NCBI GenBank assembly: GCA_028286685.1
Contig: JAQBRA010000002.1
Location: 1,073 to 65,072 of the forward strand
Origin: Candidatus Adlerbacteria bacterium
Lineage (GTDB): Bacteria; Patescibacteriota; Minisyncoccia; Phycocordibacterales; SBAW01
Length of the DNA stretch: 64,000 nucleotides
Reading direction: 5' to 3'
The notes under the pieces are model-generated. The model made no database searches. It saw nothing but the letters and a program-made list of their open reading frames with translations, and was not told the DNA's origin. The position numbers and the translations under genes were made by a program. Shown one piece after another: positions 4,892 to 60,942 of the stretch; the first letter of the stretch is position 1; every line of letters begins with the position of its first letter.

Positions 4892-6400
4892 ATGACCCAA
4901 CCTTCCGCCACATCGGGCTCGCGCCCTCCCATAGTTGCAATCGTCGGCCACATTGACCACGGCAAGTCGACCCTGCTCGACTATATTCGCAACACGAAGA
5001 TTGTGGAGGGCGAGGCGGGCGGCATCACCCAGCACCTCTCCGCCTACCAGGCCGTGCACGAGAACTCCACGGGCAAGCACGCCATTACCTTTCTGGATAC
5101 GCCGGGACACGCGGCGTTTGTGGGCATGCGCTCGCGCGGGCTCGAGGTAGCCGACGTCGCGATCCTCATAGTTTCGGCCGAAGAGGGCTCCAAGATCCAG
5201 ACTCTGGAGGCGATCGAGCTTATCAAGAGCGCAAAGATCCCCTTCGTCGTCGCTTTTACGAAAATAGACAAGCCGGGCGCCGATCTTGAGCGCGCCAAGA
5301 TGTCGCTCTTGGAGCACCAGGTATTCGTAGAAGGCATGGGCGGCGATGTGCCGTGGGTCGGCGTCTCGGGCAAGACCGGCGAGGGCATTCCCGAGCTTTT
5401 GGACCTCATACTCCTTTCCGCAGAACTTGAAGAAATTACTGCAGACCCCACCCTTCCGGGCCGGGGGCTCGTTATCGAAGCGCATACCGAGTCCAAGCGC
5501 GGCAACACCGCGATGCTCATCGTTTTGGACGGCTCGGTTATAAGCGGCAAATACGTTGTCGCCGGCGAATGCATCGCCCCAGTGCGCATCATGGAGAACT
5601 TTTTGGGCAAGCCTATAAAGGAAGCCGTGCCCTCAGACCCTATCCGCATCGTGGGCTTTACCCCGCTGCCGCCGGTCGGCACCCGCTTTGAGGTAGTTGA
5701 AAATAAAAAGCTCGCTGAAGCTGCCGCGGCAGCAAACAAGAACGCGAAGGCCAAGCCCGAGGCCACCGGACCCGCCGAGGCTACTGAGCGCACCGTGCTC
5801 CCCGTCATCATAAAGACCGACGTTGCCGGCACCGGCGAGGCGGTCGCCCACGAGATACAGAAGCTCCCCCAGCACGAGAAGCTCGAGGTGCGCGTGATAG
5901 CGCGCGCCGTCGGAGCTATCAGCGAGGGCGACGTCAAGATGCTCGCCGGCAGCTCCACCCCGGGCATTATCGCTGGCTTTAATGTAAAAATTGAGCCCGC
6001 CGCCCGCGAGCTGGCCGAGCGCCAGGGCGTTACGGTCAATACTTTCGATATCATCTACAAGCTCACCGAGTGGCTCGAGGCCACTATAGAGGAGCGCCGC
6101 CCGCGCGAGGAAGTCGACGAGGTTAAAGTCCGTGCCGCGGTACTTAAGTGCTTCAGCGTGCAGGGCAACCGCGTAGTCCTCGGCGGCCGCGTTGAAGAAG
6201 GTACCCTTACCGAGGGCCAGGAAGTGCGCTTAGTGCGCCGCGAGGAGGAAATCGGCCGCGGCAAGATTATTTCGCTCCAGACCGGAAAGACCCCGGCCAA
6301 GAAAGTCGAGGCGGGCAGCGAGTTCGGCGCGATGCTCAAGACCGATGCCATTCCCGCCTCCGGCGACAAGATCGAGGTGTACACTACGGTCATCAAATAA
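4892..6400 (+). CDS. infB: Translation initiation factor IF-2 (short form, no long N-terminal region)
   Basis: 502 aa with G-domain PPIVAIVGHIDHGKSTLLDYIR, DTPGHAAF and TKIDK, plus C-terminal IF-2 domains. Confidence 0.95.
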   Translation: MTQPSATSGSRPPIVAIVGHIDHGKSTLLDYIRNTKIVEGEAGGITQHLSAYQAVHENSTGKHAITFLDTPGHAAFVGMRSRGLEVADVAILIVSAEEGSKIQTLEAIELIKSAKIPFVVAFTKIDKPGADLERAKMSLLEHQVFVEGMGGDVPWVGVSGKTGEGIPELLDLILLSAELEEITADPTLPGRGLVIEAHTESKRGNTAMLIVLDGSVISGKYVVAGECIAPVRIMENFLGKPIKEAVPSDPIRIVGFTPLPPVGTRFEVVENKKLAEAAAAANKNAKAKPEATGPAEATERTVLPVIIKTDVAGTGEAVAHEIQKLPQHEKLEVRVIARAVGAISEGDVKMLAGSSTPGIIAGFNVKIEPAARELAERQGVTVNTFDIIYKLTEWLEATIEERRPREEVDEVKVRAAVLKCFSVQGNRVVLGGRVEEGTLTEGQEVRLVRREEEIGRGKIISLQTGKTPAKKVEAGSEFGAMLKTDAIPASGDKIEVYTTVIK

Positions 6401-6730: not shown

Positions 6731-6761
6731 GCGCCTCTGGTGCGCTAAAGTGTATAAGGTC

Positions 6762-6833
6762 GGCCACGTAGCCAAGTAGAAAGGCGCGGGACTGCAAATC
6801 CTGTATGCGCGGGTGCGATTCCCGCCGTGGCCT
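6762..6833 (+). tRNA. tRNA-Cys(GCA)
   Basis: Cloverleaf by hand: acceptor GGCCACG/CGTGGCC, anticodon stem CGGGA/TCCTG with loop CTGCAAA, T arm GCGGG-TGCGATT-CCCGC, discriminator T. No encoded CCA. The T-loop is atypical (G at position 55). Confidence 0.85.
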
Positions 6834-6837
6834 CAAG
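6822..6837 (+). repeat. Direct repeat DR1 (tRNA-Cys nt 62-73 plus CAAG)
   Basis: CCGCCGTGGCCTCAAG recurs identically at 6990..7005. Confidence 0.9.
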
Positions 6838-7001
6838 GAGAGTATTCGACGCTGGGGCCACGGAGAGAAGCATGGGATGCTTCTCGTCGGGAATCGCAAG
6901 CCGGAGCGGGCCCCATGCCTCTTGGCATGGGAGCGAGGCAGGGCCGTGCGGCACATGATCCAGTGGTATCATGTGAACGCCTGGCCGATCCGCCGTGGCC
7001 T
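6834..7001 (+). ncRNA. tRNA-3'-linked structured element, copy 1 (host tRNA-Cys), full length
   Basis: 22-nt spacer, then GGCCACG (6856..6862, a copy of tRNA nt 1-7) and hairpin 1 at 6865..6885. The 11-mer CGGGAATCGCA (6888..6898) is antisense to tRNA nt 54-64. Conserved blocks follow with hairpin 2 (6912..6931) and hairpin 3 (6952..6975). The element ends GAT+CCGCCGTGGCCT, a copy of tRNA nt 62-73. It has no coding potential, and homologous copies lie at 8003..8133 and 53792..53961. Confidence 0.65.
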
Positions 7002-7005
7002 CAAG
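6990..7005 (+). repeat. Direct repeat DR2 (second copy of tRNA-Cys 3' end plus CAAG)
   Basis: Identical 16-mer to 6822..6837. Confidence 0.9.
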
Positions 7006-7012
7006 TTTATTT

Positions 7013-7096
7013 GCCGGGGTGATGGAATGGTAGACATAGGGGACTTAAAATCCCCAGAGCTAATATCTCGTGTGGGTTCGAGTCCCACCCCCGGCA
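7013..7096 (+). tRNA. tRNA-Leu(TAA)
   Basis: Acceptor GCCGGGG/CCCCGGC, anticodon stem GGGGA/TCCCC with loop CTTAAAA, long variable arm, T arm GTGGG-TTCGAGT-CCCAC, discriminator A. Confidence 0.9.
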
Positions 7097-7101
7097 CCGG
7101 T

Positions 7102-7980
7102 ATGGATTTTTTATACGGAAAGCTAGAGCAAGCACCTGAGGGTTTTTGTCCACCTGAGATGTGGCCTGAGTACGCGATCGTGTCCCAGCCTACCTGGCCC
7201 TGCACAAGCGAAGGTGTAGGCAAGGACCCCAGCGGCGTACGCTGGGGTCTATGGCCCTTTACCTTTGAAGACTACATAAGCGACAAAGAACCAAACCTGC
7301 AGGAGTCGCGCAAAGGCACACTGGCCCGCAATCGCGTTATTACGTGGGAGCGCGTGCGCAAAACCAACATACCCCGGGGATGGATGCAGTTTAGCAGAGC
7401 ACCCTCGCGCATAGATGGCGTTTTATCCCTAGATCAAGATCAGGATTATACCCTTTCATGGAATAAGAATGCCCGCCGCGATTTGCGAATTTTTAAAGAC
7501 AAAGTGGCAAGCGGGCTCTATGCAGTAGTGCCGATTTCAATGGATGCGTTTGCAGGTGCTTACCGACAAAGCCTGATAGCCCAACGTGTTGATCTCCGCC
7601 GCCTCGAGGATCTTGAGCGCAAGTTTGCACATCCAGCCGCGCAAGGACATATAAAATTATGGGGTGTTCGTAACACTCAAACTGATGCCATAGTAGCGGG
7701 CACTGCTATTAATTATTCTCCTACCTATAAAAACTCGACTCATATTGCGCCCTTTATACTTGAGGAAGGGCGCCACCTCTGCGCCGCAACGGGGCTTATT
7801 GACCATTGGTTTGCAGAATCCATAAAACACGGCTGCACTTTTGCAACCACGCTCAACTTTTGGTTTAAGGGCCAGCCCAAAGAGTGGCGCGGGTTTTCTG
7901 AATTCAAATCGCACTTTGGGTTTCAGTTTGTGGCCTATCCACCTCGGCTCTATAAGTTCGTTTTAGGGAAGATTTTTTAA
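7102..7980 (+). CDS. FemAB/CelD-like GNAT-fold (Acetyltransf_6-like) protein
   Basis: The ORF 6805..7980 reads through two tRNAs and the element, so I take the first plausible ATG at 7102 (292 aa). The C-terminal GFSEFKSHFGFQF resembles the x-Y-x-FK-x-x-FG motif of FemAB/BioF2-like acyltransferases. The gene is visibly AT-richer than its flanks. The start is uncertain because no SD is seen. Confidence 0.45.
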   Translation: MDFLYGKLEQAPEGFCPPEMWPEYAIVSQPTWPCTSEGVGKDPSGVRWGLWPFTFEDYISDKEPNLQESRKGTLARNRVITWERVRKTNIPRGWMQFSRAPSRIDGVLSLDQDQDYTLSWNKNARRDLRIFKDKVASGLYAVVPISMDAFAGAYRQSLIAQRVDLRRLEDLERKFAHPAAQGHIKLWGVRNTQTDAIVAGTAINYSPTYKNSTHIAPFILEEGRHLCAATGLIDHWFAESIKHGCTFATTLNFWFKGQPKEWRGFSEFKSHFGFQFVAYPPRLYKFVLGKIF

Positions 7981-8002
7981 ATTTTTAGTATTTCGCACTA
8001 GT

Positions 8003-8133
8003 GGTCAGGCGTTCAACATGCGCCGTCGCACACATTGCCGCACGACCCTGCCTCGCCGTCCTGCAAGCGTAGGACATGGCTCCGGCTCGCACACAAGCAG
8101 AAAGCCTCCCGCAGGGGAGGCTTTCTGCTTGTG
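8003..8133 (-). ncRNA. tRNA-3'-linked structured element, copy 2 (host tRNA-Lys), core-only variant
   Basis: Read on the minus strand after tRNA-Lys, a 22-bp perfect hairpin comes first. Then follow GAGCCGGAGC, hairpin GTCCT/AGGAC, CGAGGCAGGGTCGTGCGGC, hairpin AATGTGTGC/GCGCATGTT and GAACGCCTGACC. It lacks the tRNA-antisense segments and the clear 3' direct repeat. Confidence 0.55.
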
Positions 8134-8136
8134 TGC
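8089..8136. repeat. 48-nt perfect palindrome (22-bp stem, 4-nt loop) abutting the tRNA-Lys 3' end
   Basis: GCACACAAGCAGAAAGCCTCCC GCAG GGGAGGCTTTCTGCTTGTGTGC. The last 3 nt overlap the tRNA-Lys 3' terminus. Confidence 0.9.
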
Positions 8137-8206
8137 GCCTACCTGGATTCGAACCAGGGACAATCTCCTTAAGAGGGAGCTGCTCTACCAACTGAGCTAT
8201 AGGCGC
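8134..8206 (-). tRNA. tRNA-Lys(CTT)
   Basis: Reverse complement GCGCCTA-TA-GCTC-AGTTGGTA-GAGC-A-GCTCC-CTCTTAA-GGAGA-TTGTC-CCTGG-TTCGAAT-CCAGG-TAGGCGC-A. Confidence 0.88.
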
Positions 8207-8335
8207 GAGTGAGGCTGGCACCAGGAATTCGTTCCTGATTGCCCGAACGAGCGGCCTATATGATTTCTCATATAGGCGCATCCGAACAGGAAAAATATAG
8301 CATAAAAATGGCTTTGCGCATAGAATGGCGATATC

Positions 8336-11622: not shown

Positions 11623-12018
11623 TTATGGGGTATACCCGTCTTTACCGAAGAGAGGGCCGCTGCTATTGCCATACTGTATCTGCGGGGCTTTTCCTCGGGC
11701 ATTTTCATCGATACCGAGCGCTTCTTGCATAAGGGCAACAATACCCCAAACCGACACCATAACAAACAAGGTTATAAGGCCCCACTTCATCAGGTCCTTG
11801 CCCTTCTCGTGCCCGCTCTTGCTCGATGCCCCCCACAGGTAGCGCACCAAGCCCCAGAAGAACACGACCAGCGCTAGGGTAATGAGTATCGGTATGAGCG
11901 CTCCTATAAGACTCCCAAAAGCCCCTAAGAGGCTTTCAATAGGCGACAGGTTAAGTCCTTGGGCAGAGGCCCATGCGGGCAAAGCGAACAGGAGCAAAGC
12001 TGCAGACCTTTTTATCAT
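11623..12018 (-). CDS. TrbC/VirB2-like (T4SS-pilin family) small membrane protein, paralog 4
   Basis: 131 aa with a signal peptide and LITLALVVFFWGLVRYLWG...GKDLMKWGLITLFVMVSVWGIV. It is near-identical in its core to the 12019..12372 product. Confidence 0.65.
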   Translation of the reverse strand: MIKRSAALLLFALPAWASAQGLNLSPIESLLGAFGSLIGALIPILITLALVVFFWGLVRYLWGASSKSGHEKGKDLMKWGLITLFVMVSVWGIVALMQEALGIDENARGKAPQIQYGNSSGPLFGKDGYTP

Positions 12019-12372
12019 TTACGGTACGAGTGCTTTAGGAGAGAGGACATCTGCATTGCGCTGGACACCCAAAGCATCCTGGGCCAGGCGGACAATGCCC
12101 CAGACCGACACCATGACAAACAAAGTTACGAGACCCCACTTCATCAGGTCCTTAGCACCGGCGGTGTTTGACTTGCCGCCAGCGCCGTACAAGTAGCGCA
12201 CCAAGCCCCAGAAAAAGACAACGAGTGCCAAGGTGATGAGTATCGGAACCAAGGCGGCAACGAGGCGGCCTACGGCGCCAATAAGATTGGCCAAAGGCTG
12301 TAGGCTCTGAGCCGAAGCCGCAAGCGGCAGTGCTAAAGAAAGGGCTGATAGTGCGGCGAAGGTCTTTTTCAT
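12019..12372 (-). CDS. TrbC/VirB2-like (T4SS-pilin family) small membrane protein, paralog 3
   Basis: 117 aa with a signal peptide and LITLALVVFFWGLVRYLYG...AKDLMKWGLVTLFVMVSVWGIV. Confidence 0.65.
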   Translation of the reverse strand: MKKTFAALSALSLALPLAASAQSLQPLANLIGAVGRLVAALVPILITLALVVFFWGLVRYLYGAGGKSNTAGAKDLMKWGLVTLFVMVSVWGIVRLAQDALGVQRNADVLSPKALVP

Positions 12373-12455
12373 TAAAATAACTTAAACGGGTATGGCTCTA
12401 TTCTAGCAGGCCCCTGCTCTCTTTTGCTTTGCCGTGTGGATAACAAAGGGCCAGG

Positions 12456-12698
12456 TTAGGCCGGCAGGAATATCCCCTGTAGCAATTGCAGTATGCCAAA
12501 TATGGATACCAGCACAAACAGCGCCACCAGGCCCCAGCCCAACAGCTCTTTTTGGCCCTGCTTGTCATGCGAGTCGCCGGACAGGTACAAGAACCGTACT
12601 GCGCCCCATAAAAATATGGCCAGCGCTACCGAGCCCAAGAGAGCCACCAGGACGTTTATAACGCTAATTATCTGGCCAACGAGGACGGAAAAAGTCAT
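12456..12698 (-). CDS. TrbC/VirB2-like (T4SS-pilin family) small membrane protein, paralog 2
   Basis: 80 aa with LAIFLWGAVRFLYLSGDSHDKQGQKELLGWGLVALFVLVSIFGIL. Confidence 0.6.
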   Translation of the reverse strand: MTFSVLVGQIISVINVLVALLGSVALAIFLWGAVRFLYLSGDSHDKQGQKELLGWGLVALFVLVSIFGILQLLQGIFLPA

Positions 12699-12701
12699 AT
12701 A

Positions 12702-13148
12702 TTAGCGGCCACAGAACTGTATCGTACCGCTGGTATCGAGCGTTTGGATAGTTGCCGAAATGATGCTGGCCAAGGTCCAAGCGCCCAGGAATATGGCAAT
12801 GCCTAAAATGACAAACTTAAAGTTCCTTTTAGCGTCGTCGAGCCCTGTCGCGCTGCCACGGGCCAATATAAACCTGAAACCCGACCATACTAAGAACAAG
12901 ACCGCGATCGGCATGCCTATCGCCATAATAATGTTGAGCAGGGCCTTGACCAGGTTGCAGAAATCATCAACGCCCAGCGGGTTACACAACTTAAAAGTAC
13001 CTCCTTGTGATCCGCAATCAGAGCCTGTGGGAACGGAATTTTGATATGTCCCTGTCTGGACAGAGTTTGCCTGCGCCAAAGCAAATTGTGGAATAAGTAT
13101 TATTCCACAAAGGATGAGCGAGGTTGAGATAAATTTATAAAATTTCAT
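12702..13148 (-). CDS. TrbC/VirB2-like pilin-type protein with Cys-containing N-terminal extension, paralog 1
   Basis: 148 aa with a signal peptide and a Cys-rich segment, then VLFLVWSGFRFILARG...AKRNFKFVILGIAIFLGAWTLASII. Confidence 0.55.
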   Translation of the reverse strand: MKFYKFISTSLILCGIILIPQFALAQANSVQTGTYQNSVPTGSDCGSQGGTFKLCNPLGVDDFCNLVKALLNIIMAIGMPIAVLFLVWSGFRFILARGSATGLDDAKRNFKFVILGIAIFLGAWTLASIISATIQTLDTSGTIQFCGR

Positions 13149-50880: not shown

Positions 50881-50890
50881 GTTCTAGCCA

Positions 50891-50930
50891 TAAAGTAAAA
50901 GACCTGCCGCAGGGCAGGTCTTTTACTTTA
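50891..50930. terminator. Bidirectional terminator
   Basis: TAAAGTAAAAGACCTGCC-GCAG-GGCAGGTCTTTTACTTTA is an 18-bp perfect stem between hsp20 (+) and tRNA-Phe (-). Confidence 0.8.
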
Positions 50931-51006
50931 TGGTGCTTGGGGCCGGGCTCGAACCGGCGACATCTTCCTCTTCAGGGAAGCGCTCTACCAACTGAGCTAC
51001 CCAAGC
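50931..51006 (-). tRNA. tRNA-Phe(GAA), CCA encoded
   Basis: Reverse complement GCTTGGG-TA-GCTC-AGTTGGTA-GAGC-G-CTTCC-CTGAAGA-GGAAG-ATGTC-GCCGG-TTCGAGC-CCGGC-CCCAAGC-A-CCA. Confidence 0.9.
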
Positions 51007-53715: not shown

Positions 53716-53791
53716 GTGCGGAATAGAAGCTGGGACTTATATTCCTTCCCTCGCTCGCAAATAATAGCGGGCTTTATTTGTCTCACTCGGG
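53716..53791 (-). other. Decayed remnant of a further tRNA-linked element copy
   Basis: Minus sense contains GCGAGCGAGG (block-2 fragment) and ends ...CTTCT-ATTCCGCA-C, a third copy of the tRNA-Gly acceptor 3' strand. It begins with CCGAG, like the spacer after tRNA-Gly. Confidence 0.35.
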
Positions 53792-53803
53792 TGCGGAATG
53801 GGA
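53790..53803 (-). repeat. Direct repeat (distal copy of tRNA-Gly nt 62-73 plus CC)
   Basis: Plus-strand GGTGCGGAATGGGA is identical to 53960..53973. The similarity continues (CTCGG vs CTCGGG) with a 1-nt indel. Confidence 0.85.
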
Positions 53804-53961
53804 ATCGGTCAGGCGTTCGTATAATGCCGTCGCATTATACGCCGCACGACCCTGCCTCGCTCCCGTGCCCGCTGGCACGGGGCCCGCTCCGGCTTTCGAT
53901 TCTCCACACAACCCGCCCCGCGGGTCGTTCATTCCGCACTCTTGTCACTATAGTTCCTCGG
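53792..53961 (-). ncRNA. tRNA-3'-linked structured element, copy 3 (host tRNA-Gly), full length
   Basis: In minus sense a 23-nt spacer comes first. Then follow TGCGGAAT (53938..53931), hairpin 1 ACGACCCGC-GGG-GCGGGTTGT, and GGAGAATCGAA (53905..53895, antisense to tRNA-Gly nt 54-64). The core is the same 99 nt as copy 1, and the element ends GAT+TCCCATTCCGCA. Confidence 0.65.
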
Positions 53962-53973
53962 TGCGGAATGGGA
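53960..53973 (-). repeat. Direct repeat (proximal copy, inside tRNA-Gly 3' end)
   Basis: Identical 14-mer to 53790..53803. Confidence 0.85.
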
Positions 53974-54032
53974 GAATCGAACTCCCGCCCGTTGCTTGGG
54001 AAGCAACTGTTCTACCACTAAACCAATTCCGC
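53962..54032 (-). tRNA. tRNA-Gly(CCC)
   Basis: Reverse complement GCGGAAT-TG-GTTT-AGTGGTA-GAAC-A-GTTGC-TTCCCAA-GCAAC-GGGC-GGGAG-TTCGATT-CTCCC-ATTCCGC-A. Confidence 0.9.
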
Positions 54033-60649: not shown

Positions 60650-60942
60650 ATTTAGCGCGCGCGTCTGTAAGCCGAGTTCTGTCGTGGGCTGCAATTTATC
60701 TGGGCCCAGAGTCGCCCCTGGGCTCGAGCGGCACTCCGCAGTTGCCTGCGGCACGGCCTTGCACCCGGGTAGGGATTTTGCCGTTTCACCCGAACTAAAT
60801 CGGTTCGTCACTGTTCGCACCCCTTACGACCGCTAATATCGTACGGCAGGCGTTACCTGCTACCTTGCTACTGCAGTTGCCCGCAGTGGGAGCTCGGACT
60901 TTCCTCTCCGTCTTGCGACAGAGCTGCAACCAAACGCGCTTT
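60650..60942 (-). ncRNA. rnpB: RNase P RNA (bacterial type A, compact)
   Basis: Minus sense contains the universally conserved GAGAGGAAAGTCCGAGCTCC (P4 5' strand) and ACAGAACTCGGCTTACAG (P4 3' strand). The ends are estimated from P1/P2-like pairing and are approximate. Confidence 0.85.

Follow-up and report, generated by a model that had tools for sequence, protein, structure and literature searches.

Structured RNA cassettes with antisense arms behind tRNA and tmRNA genes of Patescibacteria

In a stretch of 64,000 nucleotides (nt) from a Candidatus Adlerbacteria genome (assembly GCA_028286685.1, contig JAQBRA010000002.1; hereafter the window, with coordinates counted from its first base), the initial annotation had noticed direct repeats at a tRNA-Cys and a tRNA-Gly gene and read them as the trace of a small mobile element. 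Our analysis revealed that each of these repeats is the 3' strand of the closing helix (P1) of a structured cassette of about 150 bases that lies 3' of the tRNA, and that the cassette represents a previously undescribed family of structured RNA cassettes on tRNA and transfer-messenger RNA (tmRNA) 3' ends. The cassette is a folded RNA (or single-strand) domain, widely conserved and with strong covariation, and it is found always on the tRNA strand and within tRNA operons. It further contains an RNA segment that is complementary to the flanking target and covaries with it.

At the tRNA-Cys locus, CCGCCGTGGCCTCAAG forms an exact 16-nt repeat with only two copies in the window (6822-6837 and 6990-7005); when up to two mismatches were allowed no third copy appeared, and 0 of 100 shuffles reached two matches. 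The exact 14-nt repeat at tRNA-Gly, TCCCATTCCGCACC, lies on the minus strand and also has only two copies (53960-53973 and 53790-53803). Two matches at the same tolerance were obtained in 11 of 100 shuffles, which makes this control weak when taken alone, and it is the exactness of both copies, together with a placement parallel to that at the Cys locus, that argues against chance. Numbering of the tRNAs was counted back from the acceptor 3' strand (for Cys, T-stem 3' strand 6821-6825 and U73 at 6833; the Gly T-arm reads GGGAG-UUCGAUU-CUCCC). On this basis both repeats begin at tRNA nt 62, the Cys repeat extending to nt 73 plus CAAG and the Gly repeat to nt 75, so that the coordinates, the exact copies and the starting position reported initially were all reproduced.

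The meaning attached to this position did not hold to the same extent. The block of exact identity does start at nt 62; the true homology, however, reaches back to C56 of the T-loop (CGAU) and is followed in both window copies by a gap of 2 nt, which had been described as a 1-nt indel beside the Gly repeat. As the copy runs uninterrupted from C56 in other family members, e.g. over 20 nt at locus L018, nt 62 marks no mechanistic boundary. Across copies the repeat measures 7, 9, 13, 14, 16, 19/35, 20 or 23 nt (range 7-35), it always starts in the T-loop immediately past ...UGACC, and the joint carries indels (-2 in both window copies, +3 in L072, -4 in L037). Because of this variable length the repeats are not a fixed target duplication, and with no integrase-type island present the proposed attachment-site (att) or target-duplication signature was not borne out. 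The distal repeat at the window Cys locus is an exact copy of the tRNA plus its trailer CAAG and not the complement of the antisense arm described below, which identifies it as a true direct duplication. Templating of this distal repeat from the arm was accordingly rejected, given that the arm complement would read ..GGCCCCAG.

The 152 nt between the Cys repeats contain no genuine open reading frame (ORF), in line with the protein-free unit of about 150 bp first described. A covariance-model (CM) search of the window with filters off detected three copies only, at tRNA-Cys, tRNA-Gly and tRNA-Lys, and the last of these, initially considered partial, proved to be a full member of the family (Table 1). 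Two architectures can be distinguished. In type 2, which includes the Cys and Gly cassettes, tRNA and core are 100-125 nt apart and a split arm covers tRNA nt 54-74. In type 1, the commoner architecture, the spacing is 80-85 nt, a long hairpin, whose 3' flank serves as the arm, takes in the last ~5 nt of the tRNA plus trailer, and the core sits at the 3' foot of this hairpin; the tail reads ...UGACC-AC followed by A-rich bases, and the repeat consists of the tRNA CAC and a few trailer bases. The Lys cassette shows the same 80-85 nt spacing as ~25 type-1 copies elsewhere (26 scored), and its arm GCUUGUGUGCG is antisense to the last 5 nt of tRNA-Lys plus trailer (arm-tRNA duplex -27.2 kcal/mol).

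Table 1 Features of the three cassettes and of a hairpin-only site in the window (MFE, minimum free energy).
Feature	Position	Strand	Remarks
tRNA-Cys(GCA), complete	6762..6834	+	ARAGORN; Rfam tRNA 63.1 bits; T-loop UGCGAUU
Proximal Cys repeat	6822..6837	+	nt 62-73 plus CAAG trailer; exact 16-mer; single copy in empty ortholog L083
Cys spacer, tRNA trailer to 5' arm	6838..6855	+	last 3 nt (UGG) lengthen the pairing by wobble; MFE fold
Cys outer arm X'a GGCCACGG	6856..6863	+	antisense to tRNA-Cys nt 65-72; equals tRNA 5' acceptor strand
Cys arm hairpin AGAGAAGCAUGGGAUGCUUCUC	6864..6885	+	between the arm segments; semi-conserved in type-2 cassettes
Cys inner arm X'b CGGGAAUCGCA	6888..6898	+	antisense to tRNA-Cys nt 54-64 (T-loop and T-stem 3' strand)
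Cys conserved core	6899..6986	+	CM R1 94 bits, E ~5e-18; no Rfam match
Cys P1 3' strand	6987..7005	+	GAU, 2-nt gap, distal repeat 6990-7005
tRNA-Leu(UAA)	7013..7098	+	7 nt past the Cys cassette
Lys type-1 cassette, complete	7995..8087	-	core 8003-8087, tail ACUAGUGC; CM R1 95 bits
tRNA-Lys(CUU) with long hairpin	8088..8206	-	tRNA 8133-8206; hairpin 3' flank GCUUGUGUGCG (8088-8098) is the type-1 arm
tRNA-Phe 3' end, hairpin-only site	50888..50935	-	tRNA-Phe 50931-51006; 21-bp perfect hairpin, no core
Gly P1 3' strand	53790..53806	-	GAU plus distal repeat UCCCAUUCCGCACC (53790-53803)
Gly conserved core	53807..53894	-	CM R1 110 bits, E ~2e-22
Gly 5' arm	53895..53939	-	X'a, hairpin and X'b
Gly X'b GGAGAAUCGAA	53895-53905	-	antisense to nt 54-64
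Gly arm hairpin	53908-53929	-	
Gly X'a GUGCGGAAUG	53930-53939	-	antisense to nt 65-74
tRNA-Gly(CCC)	53960..54032	-	complete (ARAGORN, Rfam); last 14 nt are the proximal repeat, nt 62-75

Within the Cys core, P2 (GCC/GGC) with a G-GA/GA internal loop leads to hairpin A, followed by S1 GGCCG/UGGCC (with G.U), a U.C mismatch, S2 GCG/CGC and hairpin B; the GAU of the P1 3' strand together with C6986 reads as T-loop nt 56-59. The arm hairpin of the Cys cassette is the same in the ortholog L086 and differs by one compensatory pair change in L066, and similar hairpins (AGCAAAG..UGGGA/CGGGG..CUUUGCG) were found at other tRNAs. As the arm hairpin exits at the boundary between acceptor and T stem, P1 reproduces the acceptor and T stems of the tRNA with the core replacing the T-loop. 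In type 2, an acceptor/T-stem minihelix with discriminator forms from X'a paired with distal nt 66-73 and X'b with distal nt 61-65; this minihelix fails for type 1 and for copies with a decayed distal acceptor part. In the MFE fold of tRNA plus cassette, the arm pairs with the 3' third of the real tRNA and the tRNA 5' strand pairs with the distal copy. With tRNA-Leu(UAA) beginning 7 nt later, the Cys cassette lies within a tRNA operon; in most relatives the Cys-to-Leu distance is 0-50 nt. Inspection of the spacers by eye for a promoter yielded a weak TATAGT in the Gly spacer only.

A consensus structure derived from an alignment of 51 cores describes the conserved core, ~88 nt in length, as a three-way junction in which P1 stacks on S1, S2 and hairpin B, and P2 with hairpin A forms a side arm. 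Its elements are P2 (GCC/GGC), the G-GA/GA internal loop and hairpin A; S1 (GGUCG/UGACC), in which one G.U is invariant; a mismatch of U and C; S2 (GCG/CGC); and hairpin B, whose GACG loop is conserved. Double changes were found at 18 of the 29 predicted core pairs. Over core and P1, 95% of cells are paired, compared with 77% after shuffling and 31-40% when the partner strand was slid, and the covariation score reaches 0.47 versus 0.16 and 0.05-0.12, respectively; 0 of 500 shuffles matched the observed pairing and covariation values. P1 is paired to 80% over the 51 sequences, with all six pairs varying on both sides. Because wobble G.U outnumbers A.C by 22 to 5 in the core, and one G.U is invariant, the folded strand is the tRNA strand. 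A variant core, termed B, shows covariation in P2 (GGC/GCC) and in S2, and its S1-S2 becomes a continuous helix. The orthologous Cys cassettes of the window, L086 and L066, located at the same site and carrying the same arm hairpin, differ by paired substitutions in hairpin A (AUGCC/GGCAU vs AAGUC/GACUU), hairpin B and the arm hairpin, and these compensatory changes indicate that the fold was kept under selection after installation.

To describe the extent of the family, a sequence pattern derived from the core, which fixed parts of it, was used for a genome scan. The scan returned 72 loci, ~50 of which are true copies as judged by the presence of the other core blocks, the rest being chance matches in other phyla. 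All true copies are found in metagenome-assembled genomes (MAGs) of Patescibacteria, namely Adlerbacteria, Paceibacterota, Nomura- and Kaiserbacteria as well as MAGs labelled Saccharibacteria, and wherever sufficient upstream sequence is available, nearly all lie 80-125 nt behind a tRNA on the same strand. At least thirteen tRNA isotypes carry cassettes (Arg, Ile, Phe, Val, Ser, Leu, Lys, Ala, Asp, Gln, Cys, Glu and Gly), in one case behind an intron-containing tRNA. Type-2 cassettes were also observed behind tmRNA, at L032 and at L043 (6303-7039), the latter with two in tandem. Tandem arrays without an intervening tRNA occur at L024 (3065-3440 and 6306-6893), L038, L052 and L068 (1-224); they alternate A and B core variants, and in L024 an identical A pair surrounds a B core. 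The sole copy seen behind a protein gene, L020 (2715-2832, minus strand), stems from a lower-GC MAG; it has a divergent core without the GCCGGAGC block and is located downstream of rplL and upstream of a terminator.

None of the known RNA families matched the cassette. Rfam 15 gave no match to it over the whole window at the gathering score, nor over 6740-8260 at E <= 10, a negative result that takes in the models for hepatitis delta virus (HDV)-like, hammerhead, twister, hatchet and pistol ribozymes, Y RNA and group I and II introns. A 16-base core pattern gave nine matches in IMG/VR, all of them chance matches with the other core blocks missing. In the literature, which was searched for the core sequence and for RNA motifs linked to tRNAs of Patescibacteria or the Candidate Phyla Radiation (CPR), the only relevant papers dealt with group I introns. 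As no fitting known family was found, we rate the cassette family as new in kind.

The antisense segments pointed out at the start are indeed specific for their own tRNA, as comparison of cognate and non-cognate duplex energies demonstrated. Type-2 arms pair with the 3' region of their own tRNA at a mean of -36.3 kcal/mol, compared with -22.6 kcal/mol for other tRNAs, and type-1 arms at -17.4 versus -10.7 kcal/mol; in total, the arm-tRNA duplexes contain 572 Watson-Crick (WC) and 14 GU pairs. For pairing of the type-2 arm with the cassette tail, the means are -24.3 (own) and -19.5 kcal/mol (other). The two Cys arm segments together reach -40.6 kcal/mol with 22 WC and 1 GU pairs. By sequence, Gly X'a and X'b are exactly complementary, with no gap, to tRNA-Gly nt 54-74; the RNAduplex value of -36.4 kcal/mol covers the X'b pairing only, as X'a lay outside the 50-nt arm window. 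Beside the core, the inner part of P1 always tracks the T-loop variant of the tRNA (AAUCG/CGAUU, AUUCG/CGAAU, ACUUG/CAAGU, AGUCG/CGACU): X'b of the Cys cassette fits the unusual Cys T-loop, the Gly, Ser, Asp and tmRNA cassettes fit their own T-loops, and the arms of L043 and L032 match the tRNA-like 3' end of tmRNA. This Cys T-loop (6814-6820), UGCGAUU, has G55 where U (pseudouridine) is nearly universal; it recurs in several relatives, with UGCGAAU in L089 and L100. As a general signal, the type-1 'direct repeat' was dismissed as weak, since the pairing of arm and tail is no better than for non-cognate combinations; individual type-1 loci do carry real trailer copies (L013, ACUAGAAA; L119, GACAAGG).

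Relatives for a comparison of orthologous sites were gathered by a metagenome scan with the upstream gene for initiation factor 2 (IF-2). The gene order infB-rbfA-tRNA-Cys-tRNA-Leu(UAA)...tRNA-Lys(CUU)-tRNA-Leu(UAG) is conserved among them, and in most tRNA-Cys abuts tRNA-Leu. An empty site was identified in L083/L084 (IF-2 76% identical), which reads ...GTGGCCTCAAG|ATTTACCCGC|tRNA-Leu, compared with ...GTGGCCTCAAG|152 nt|CCGCCGTGGCCTCAAG|TTTATTT|tRNA-Leu in the window, i.e. L083/L084 differ from the filled site by the absence of 152 nt and one repeat. Empty sites of exactly this form, lacking the module and one repeat, had been predicted. Among the sites examined in relatives, 7 of 69 are filled at tRNA-Cys, 5 of 58 at tRNA-Leu(UAA), 8 of 42 at tRNA-Lys(CUU) and 1 of 37 at tRNA-Leu(UAG). 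The window and L086, which are both filled, fall into one clade of the IF-2 tree with L083 (empty), L082 and L087 (no cassette), and all outgroups are empty at the Cys site; this mixture implies that the cassette was either gained within the clade and then lost repeatedly, or else transferred. At tRNA-Lys, empty sites leave 3-20 nt to the next tRNA, and filled sites consist of hairpin plus core.

The tRNA-Phe site of the window bears a hairpin without a core, which includes the encoded CCA of the tRNA in its pairing (CCAUAAAG...CUUUAUGG). The ortholog L015 shares this hairpin and has a 91-nt core inserted precisely at its 3' foot, with no clear duplication. At the Phe site of other relatives, L164 and L166 have hairpin plus core, L167 is bare, and L162 contains a different cassette that is also flanked by a tRNA-end repeat. 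The Phe hairpin ACCUGCC-CUGC-GGCAGGU recurs behind other tRNAs in other genomes, and for this reason the hairpin itself may be a spreading unit. At tRNA-Gly, L162 is empty, L163 and L164 show a nested tRNA arrangement, and L166 and L167 an inverted tRNA. Occupancy thus varies at the Cys, Lys, Phe and Gly sites, which runs counter to the situation that the initial annotation had named as favouring a fixed gene, namely no empty sites and no polymorphism. Since empty sites exist, a mobile or duplicative history stands, in which mobilisation in trans or RNA-specified targeting would be hypothetical steps.

Several rearranged tRNA genes were observed at these sites. The nested tRNA-Gly is located downstream of lepA (L163 4860-5080, L164 4885-5100) and opens with a tRNA-Gly 5' fragment (nt 1-26); a complete tRNA-Gly follows, flanked by the two matching arms of an inverted repeat, and after these come a hairpin and finally a tRNA-Gly 3' fragment that starts in the anticodon loop. 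Inversion of the tRNA in situ, with no cassette, was seen for tRNA-Cys in L082, L087, L097 and L099 and for tRNA-Gly in L166 and L167; L082 is sister to the cassette-bearing L086 in the IF-2 tree. The inverted tRNA gene starts with the same bases as the cassette antisense arm minus its hairpin.

Movement between loci is apparent within a single genome, where the cores of L013 (Arg) and L050 (Ala) differ by 1 nt and each arm fits its own tRNA. Identical hairpins are found again at other tRNAs and in other genomes, combined as mosaics, and core phylogeny is suggested to be incongruent with both tRNA isotype and host tree. Mobility genes were sought with Pfam among the ~60 ORFs of the window, which are housekeeping genes; as already remarked for these 64 kb, no integrase, transposase or reverse transcriptase (RT) domain was detected. 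Neither an element-encoded DEDD recombinase nor an RT is present in the cassette or the window ORFs, and no intron model matched. Likewise, no terminal inverted repeats are common to all copies; arm and tail differ at each locus and follow the adjacent tRNA. The idea of a mobile non-autonomous element therefore stands with regard to insertion polymorphism and the missing local enzyme, and fails in so far as the conserved and selected fold makes the cassette more than a miniature DNA transposon. A second, unrelated conserved cassette was noticed behind tRNAs at L162 (~6010-6130, Phe) and L048 (~2500-2620, Gln), with the motif GGGGUCGGGAA-hairpin-CCCGUGGAGGAAGG-hairpin-CCCAG; here too, an antisense arm pairs up with a sense copy of the tRNA 3' end to close the cassette (CCCCAAGCAC; CCCGUAUUCCCCCAGC); a search for this motif in the window was negative.

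Taken together, we favour, at about even confidence, a scenario in which a new family of RNA cassettes is installed by duplicative copying or recombination and gives rise to a tRNA-mimic RNA. Type-2 cassettes would spread between tRNA loci via the conserved T-loop and type-1 cassettes via CAC and the A/U-tract, in neither case with a dedicated transposase. Copying would duplicate the 3' segment of the recipient tRNA and some trailer, and selection or hairpin-templated correction may then preserve the match between arm and tRNA. The cassette would be co-transcribed with the tRNA, and mimicry of a minihelix could lead RNase P and RNase Z to excise it, possibly with addition of CCA, thereby releasing a stable small RNA whose core binds a putative partner; in the precursor, the arm might capture the 3' third of the tRNA. 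Such processing is plausible by analogy with Mycobacterium smegmatis YrlA, in which the tRNA-like domain in a non-coding RNA (ncRNA) undergoes cleavage by RNase P and receives CCA (PMC4201824).

Several observations weigh against this scenario. A terminator-like hairpin ahead of many cores might limit transcription of the core, and copy-choice installation is inferred from junction patterns only. No directly upstream tRNA was detectable for L012, L064, L078 and L020, the last of which follows rplL. For type 1, pairing of the arm with its own cassette tail (-9.2 kcal/mol) shows no gain over other tails (-8.5 kcal/mol). The type-2 copies L041, L063-, L030 and L071 have lost the distal acceptor part, so that no complete minihelix can form within them, and their outer arm still complements the tRNA; the retained arm fits better with arm-tRNA pairing or DNA-level templating than with a role as tRNA scaffold. 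Finally, conservation of the core is in part an ascertainment effect, as the search pattern predetermined parts of it.

A more far-reaching version, to which we assign a low probability, regards the cassette as a self-propagating RNA element free of protein genes, with the universally conserved T-loop and 3' end of tRNAs and tmRNA as landing pad. With each installation, the recipient tRNA would serve as template for arm and sense copy, through template switching while the host replicates or via an RNA intermediate, and the released tRNA-mimic RNA would have a role in the cell, for example in binding a tRNA-handling protein or in capturing the tRNA 3' third. Several unrelated cores appear to share the same arm-and-repeat entry route. 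If true, this would constitute a new class of target-templated mobile structured RNA. A different form of mobility, also unlikely in our view, would be that of a non-autonomous miniature DNA element, of the miniature inverted-repeat transposable element (MITE) or att type, whose movement in trans would depend on a recombinase or transposase from another part of the genome; here, the antisense arm would act as target specifier in the manner of a bridge RNA or of group II exon- and intron-binding site (EBS/IBS) pairing, and the repeat would be an att core or target duplication. The form of the empty site (filled minus cassette and one repeat), the sparse and patchy occupancy, the near-identical cores at different tRNAs of one genome, the target-specific arms and the tandem arrays all agree with this idea, and integrases classically target tRNA and tmRNA genes, at sublocations in the T-loop and at the 3' end (Islander, PMC4383910). 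However, the 64-kb window encodes no recombinase, transposase or RT, the repeat varies from 7 to 35 nt, and the element ends differ at every locus, which leaves no common terminal site for a protein. Dozens of 20-nt guides per lineage would demand that the guide be rewritten at each move, and at least one unrelated core (L162, L048) has the same layout of arm and repeat. In addition, the three window copies diverge throughout their stems and orthologs evolve by compensation, which points to old copies selected in place and not to recent bursts.

The opposite case, an ancient and fixed tRNA-like RNA gene, would explain the cassette as a remodelled tandem tRNA duplicate with the core in the T-loop and no mobility, the acceptor and T stems being retained as scaffold and empty sites arising as losses through direct-repeat recombination. 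The identity of P1 with the neighbouring tRNA's acceptor and T stems, the inclusion of some trailer in the distal copy, as in a tandem duplicate, and selection on the structure speak for such a gene, as does the orthologous cassette shared by the window and L086, whose absence from L083, L082 and L087 of the same IF-2 clade implies at least two losses. We nevertheless consider a fixed gene quite improbable: the inner arm is antisense to the T-loop and not a copy of it (AAUCGCA vs UGCGAUU), type 1 has no tRNA-derived scaffold, and the Cys site is empty in all outgroups. Arm hairpin and core are common to cassettes at different tRNAs, so the cassettes were not derived from each tRNA separately, and near-identical or mosaic cores across isotypes and genomes demand transfer between loci. 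Still less probable is a cis-regulatory 3'-end switch, in which the arm alternates between the tRNA 3' end plus trailer and the cassette tail and thereby controls tRNA termination or 3' maturation, perhaps via a ligand or protein bound to the core. The same arm does have two mutually exclusive pairings, of which the MFE fold selects that with the tRNA, and it pairs also with trailer bases found only in the precursor; the junction, with conserved junction bases and variable stems, is aptamer-like, and hairpin-only sites show tRNA-end hairpins without a core. Against a switch, the core lies downstream of the hairpin that it would control, only a minority of tRNAs carry cassettes, in a set that varies among close relatives, the loci share no downstream gene, and neither the tandem arrays nor the after-rplL copies suit it. 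A decayed integrase-island scar, or an intron in the T-loop with an alternative 3' exon, has hardly any probability left. A regenerated tRNA with a displaced 3' fragment is the footprint of an island (PMC4383910), and the MFE fold of the full Cys and Gly units pairs the tRNA 5' strand with the distal copy. The scar was nevertheless ruled out by the same 88-nt core with covariation at ~50 loci, which is unlike a scar, and by the lack of an integrase. The intron was rejected since many distal copies have no acceptor strand and the swapped fold is hence not conserved; no group I or group II model matched, and the upstream tRNA is complete (ARAGORN, Rfam), so that no splicing is needed.

Some further resemblances were followed and discarded. 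S1 GGUCG/UGACC resembles GGUCCGA, which pointed to Y RNA and Ro60, but the GNCGAAN0-1G motif (PMC4201824) is absent and no Rfam match was obtained. Likenesses seen by eye to a kink-turn, an H/ACA pocket and a primer-binding site (PBS) failed owing to a 1-nt bulge, the lack of an unpaired target base and the lack of CCA complementarity in the Gly copy, respectively. Among the other features of the window, the LepA protein shares 100% identity with one from a Candidatus Adlerbacteria MAG. The RNase P RNA (60652-60942, minus strand) is a reduced form of only 291 nt that reaches 104.8 bits, the gathering score being 100; no cassette lies behind it. Three adjacent small ORFs (11623-13148, minus strand) match type IV secretion system (T4SS) pilin and TrbC-VirB2 pilin families and adjoin a gene for a solute-binding protein.

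Among known systems, Islander-type islands and prophages use tyrosine integrases that insert into tRNA and tmRNA genes (PMC4383910). They share with the cassettes an intact tRNA, a displaced 3' copy at the far end and a single copy in empty sites; in contrast, the cassette measures only ~150 nt, has no ORF, integrase or cargo between the repeats, and combines a target-antisense arm with a selected folded core and an identity block of variable length. MITEs, repetitive extragenic palindromic (REP) sequences, bacterial interspersed mosaic elements (BIMEs) and Correia elements are short, non-coding, multi-copy hairpin repeats that are co-transcribed, sometimes tandem and variable between strains. 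The cassettes are likewise short, non-coding, multi-copy, hairpin-forming and present or absent between relatives, but they have neither shared terminal inverted repeats nor a fixed target duplication; their ends derive from the target, their orientation and position relative to the tRNA are strict, and they form a covarying three-way junction instead of a palindrome. In IS110 bridge RNAs and in the EBS/IBS pairing of group II introns, a segment of a structured non-coding RNA is complementary to the target. The cassette, too, contains a segment that is complementary to the flanking target and covaries with it, yet it lacks recombinase, RT and intron domains, its antisense is near-perfect over 20 nt, and a sense copy of the target also closes its structure.

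Downstream of MALAT1, mascRNA provides a tRNA-like ncRNA domain that is processed by tRNA enzymes. Both the bacterial Y RNA YrlA (PMC4201824) and mascRNA resemble the cassette in having an acceptor/T-stem-like helix inside a larger ncRNA; the cassette, however, mimics a particular neighbouring tRNA, and with an extension of the helix and the core replacing the T-loop it has no elbow. In contrast to YrlA, it has no GNCGAAN0-1G motif and no known Rsr/Ro context. HDV-like theta ribozymes located directly 3' of phage tRNAs have been proposed to act in tRNA 3' processing (PMC10879173) and are also small structured RNAs immediately 3' of tRNA genes. Unlike these, the cassette core starts 45-70 nt past the tRNA, the arms are target-matched, no ribozyme model matches, and the cassettes reside in host genomes and were not found in the IMG/VR scan. 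Group I introns in Patescibacteria tRNA genes are inserted into the anticodon loop, spliced out and devoid of homing-endonuclease genes (PMC13011429). Phylum and gene class are the same as for the cassettes, and both are RNA elements that come and go, but the cassette lies behind a complete tRNA and shows no group I features.

Patescibacteria have genomes of ~1 Mb with very little spare DNA, and despite this small size many copies of a ~90-nt fold are kept at the tails of their tRNAs and tmRNAs. For genome annotation, the family supplies a ready covariance model, and it cautions against reading every repeat of a tRNA 3' fragment as the scar of an integrase. Specific predictions open to test concern processing sites, a protein partner and the junctions of gain and loss. 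If the cassettes spread without an enzyme of their own, structured RNAs could colonise genomes by using the T-loop as universal homology; direct repeats, antisense arms and the tRNA genes found inverted in situ or nested in relatives would thereby be explained. Should the RNA have a cellular role, it would represent a new abundant class of ncRNA tied to tRNA biology, in a phylum whose RNA processing is, to our knowledge, mostly unknown, and would offer a natural counterpart to the engineered 'tRNA scaffold'.

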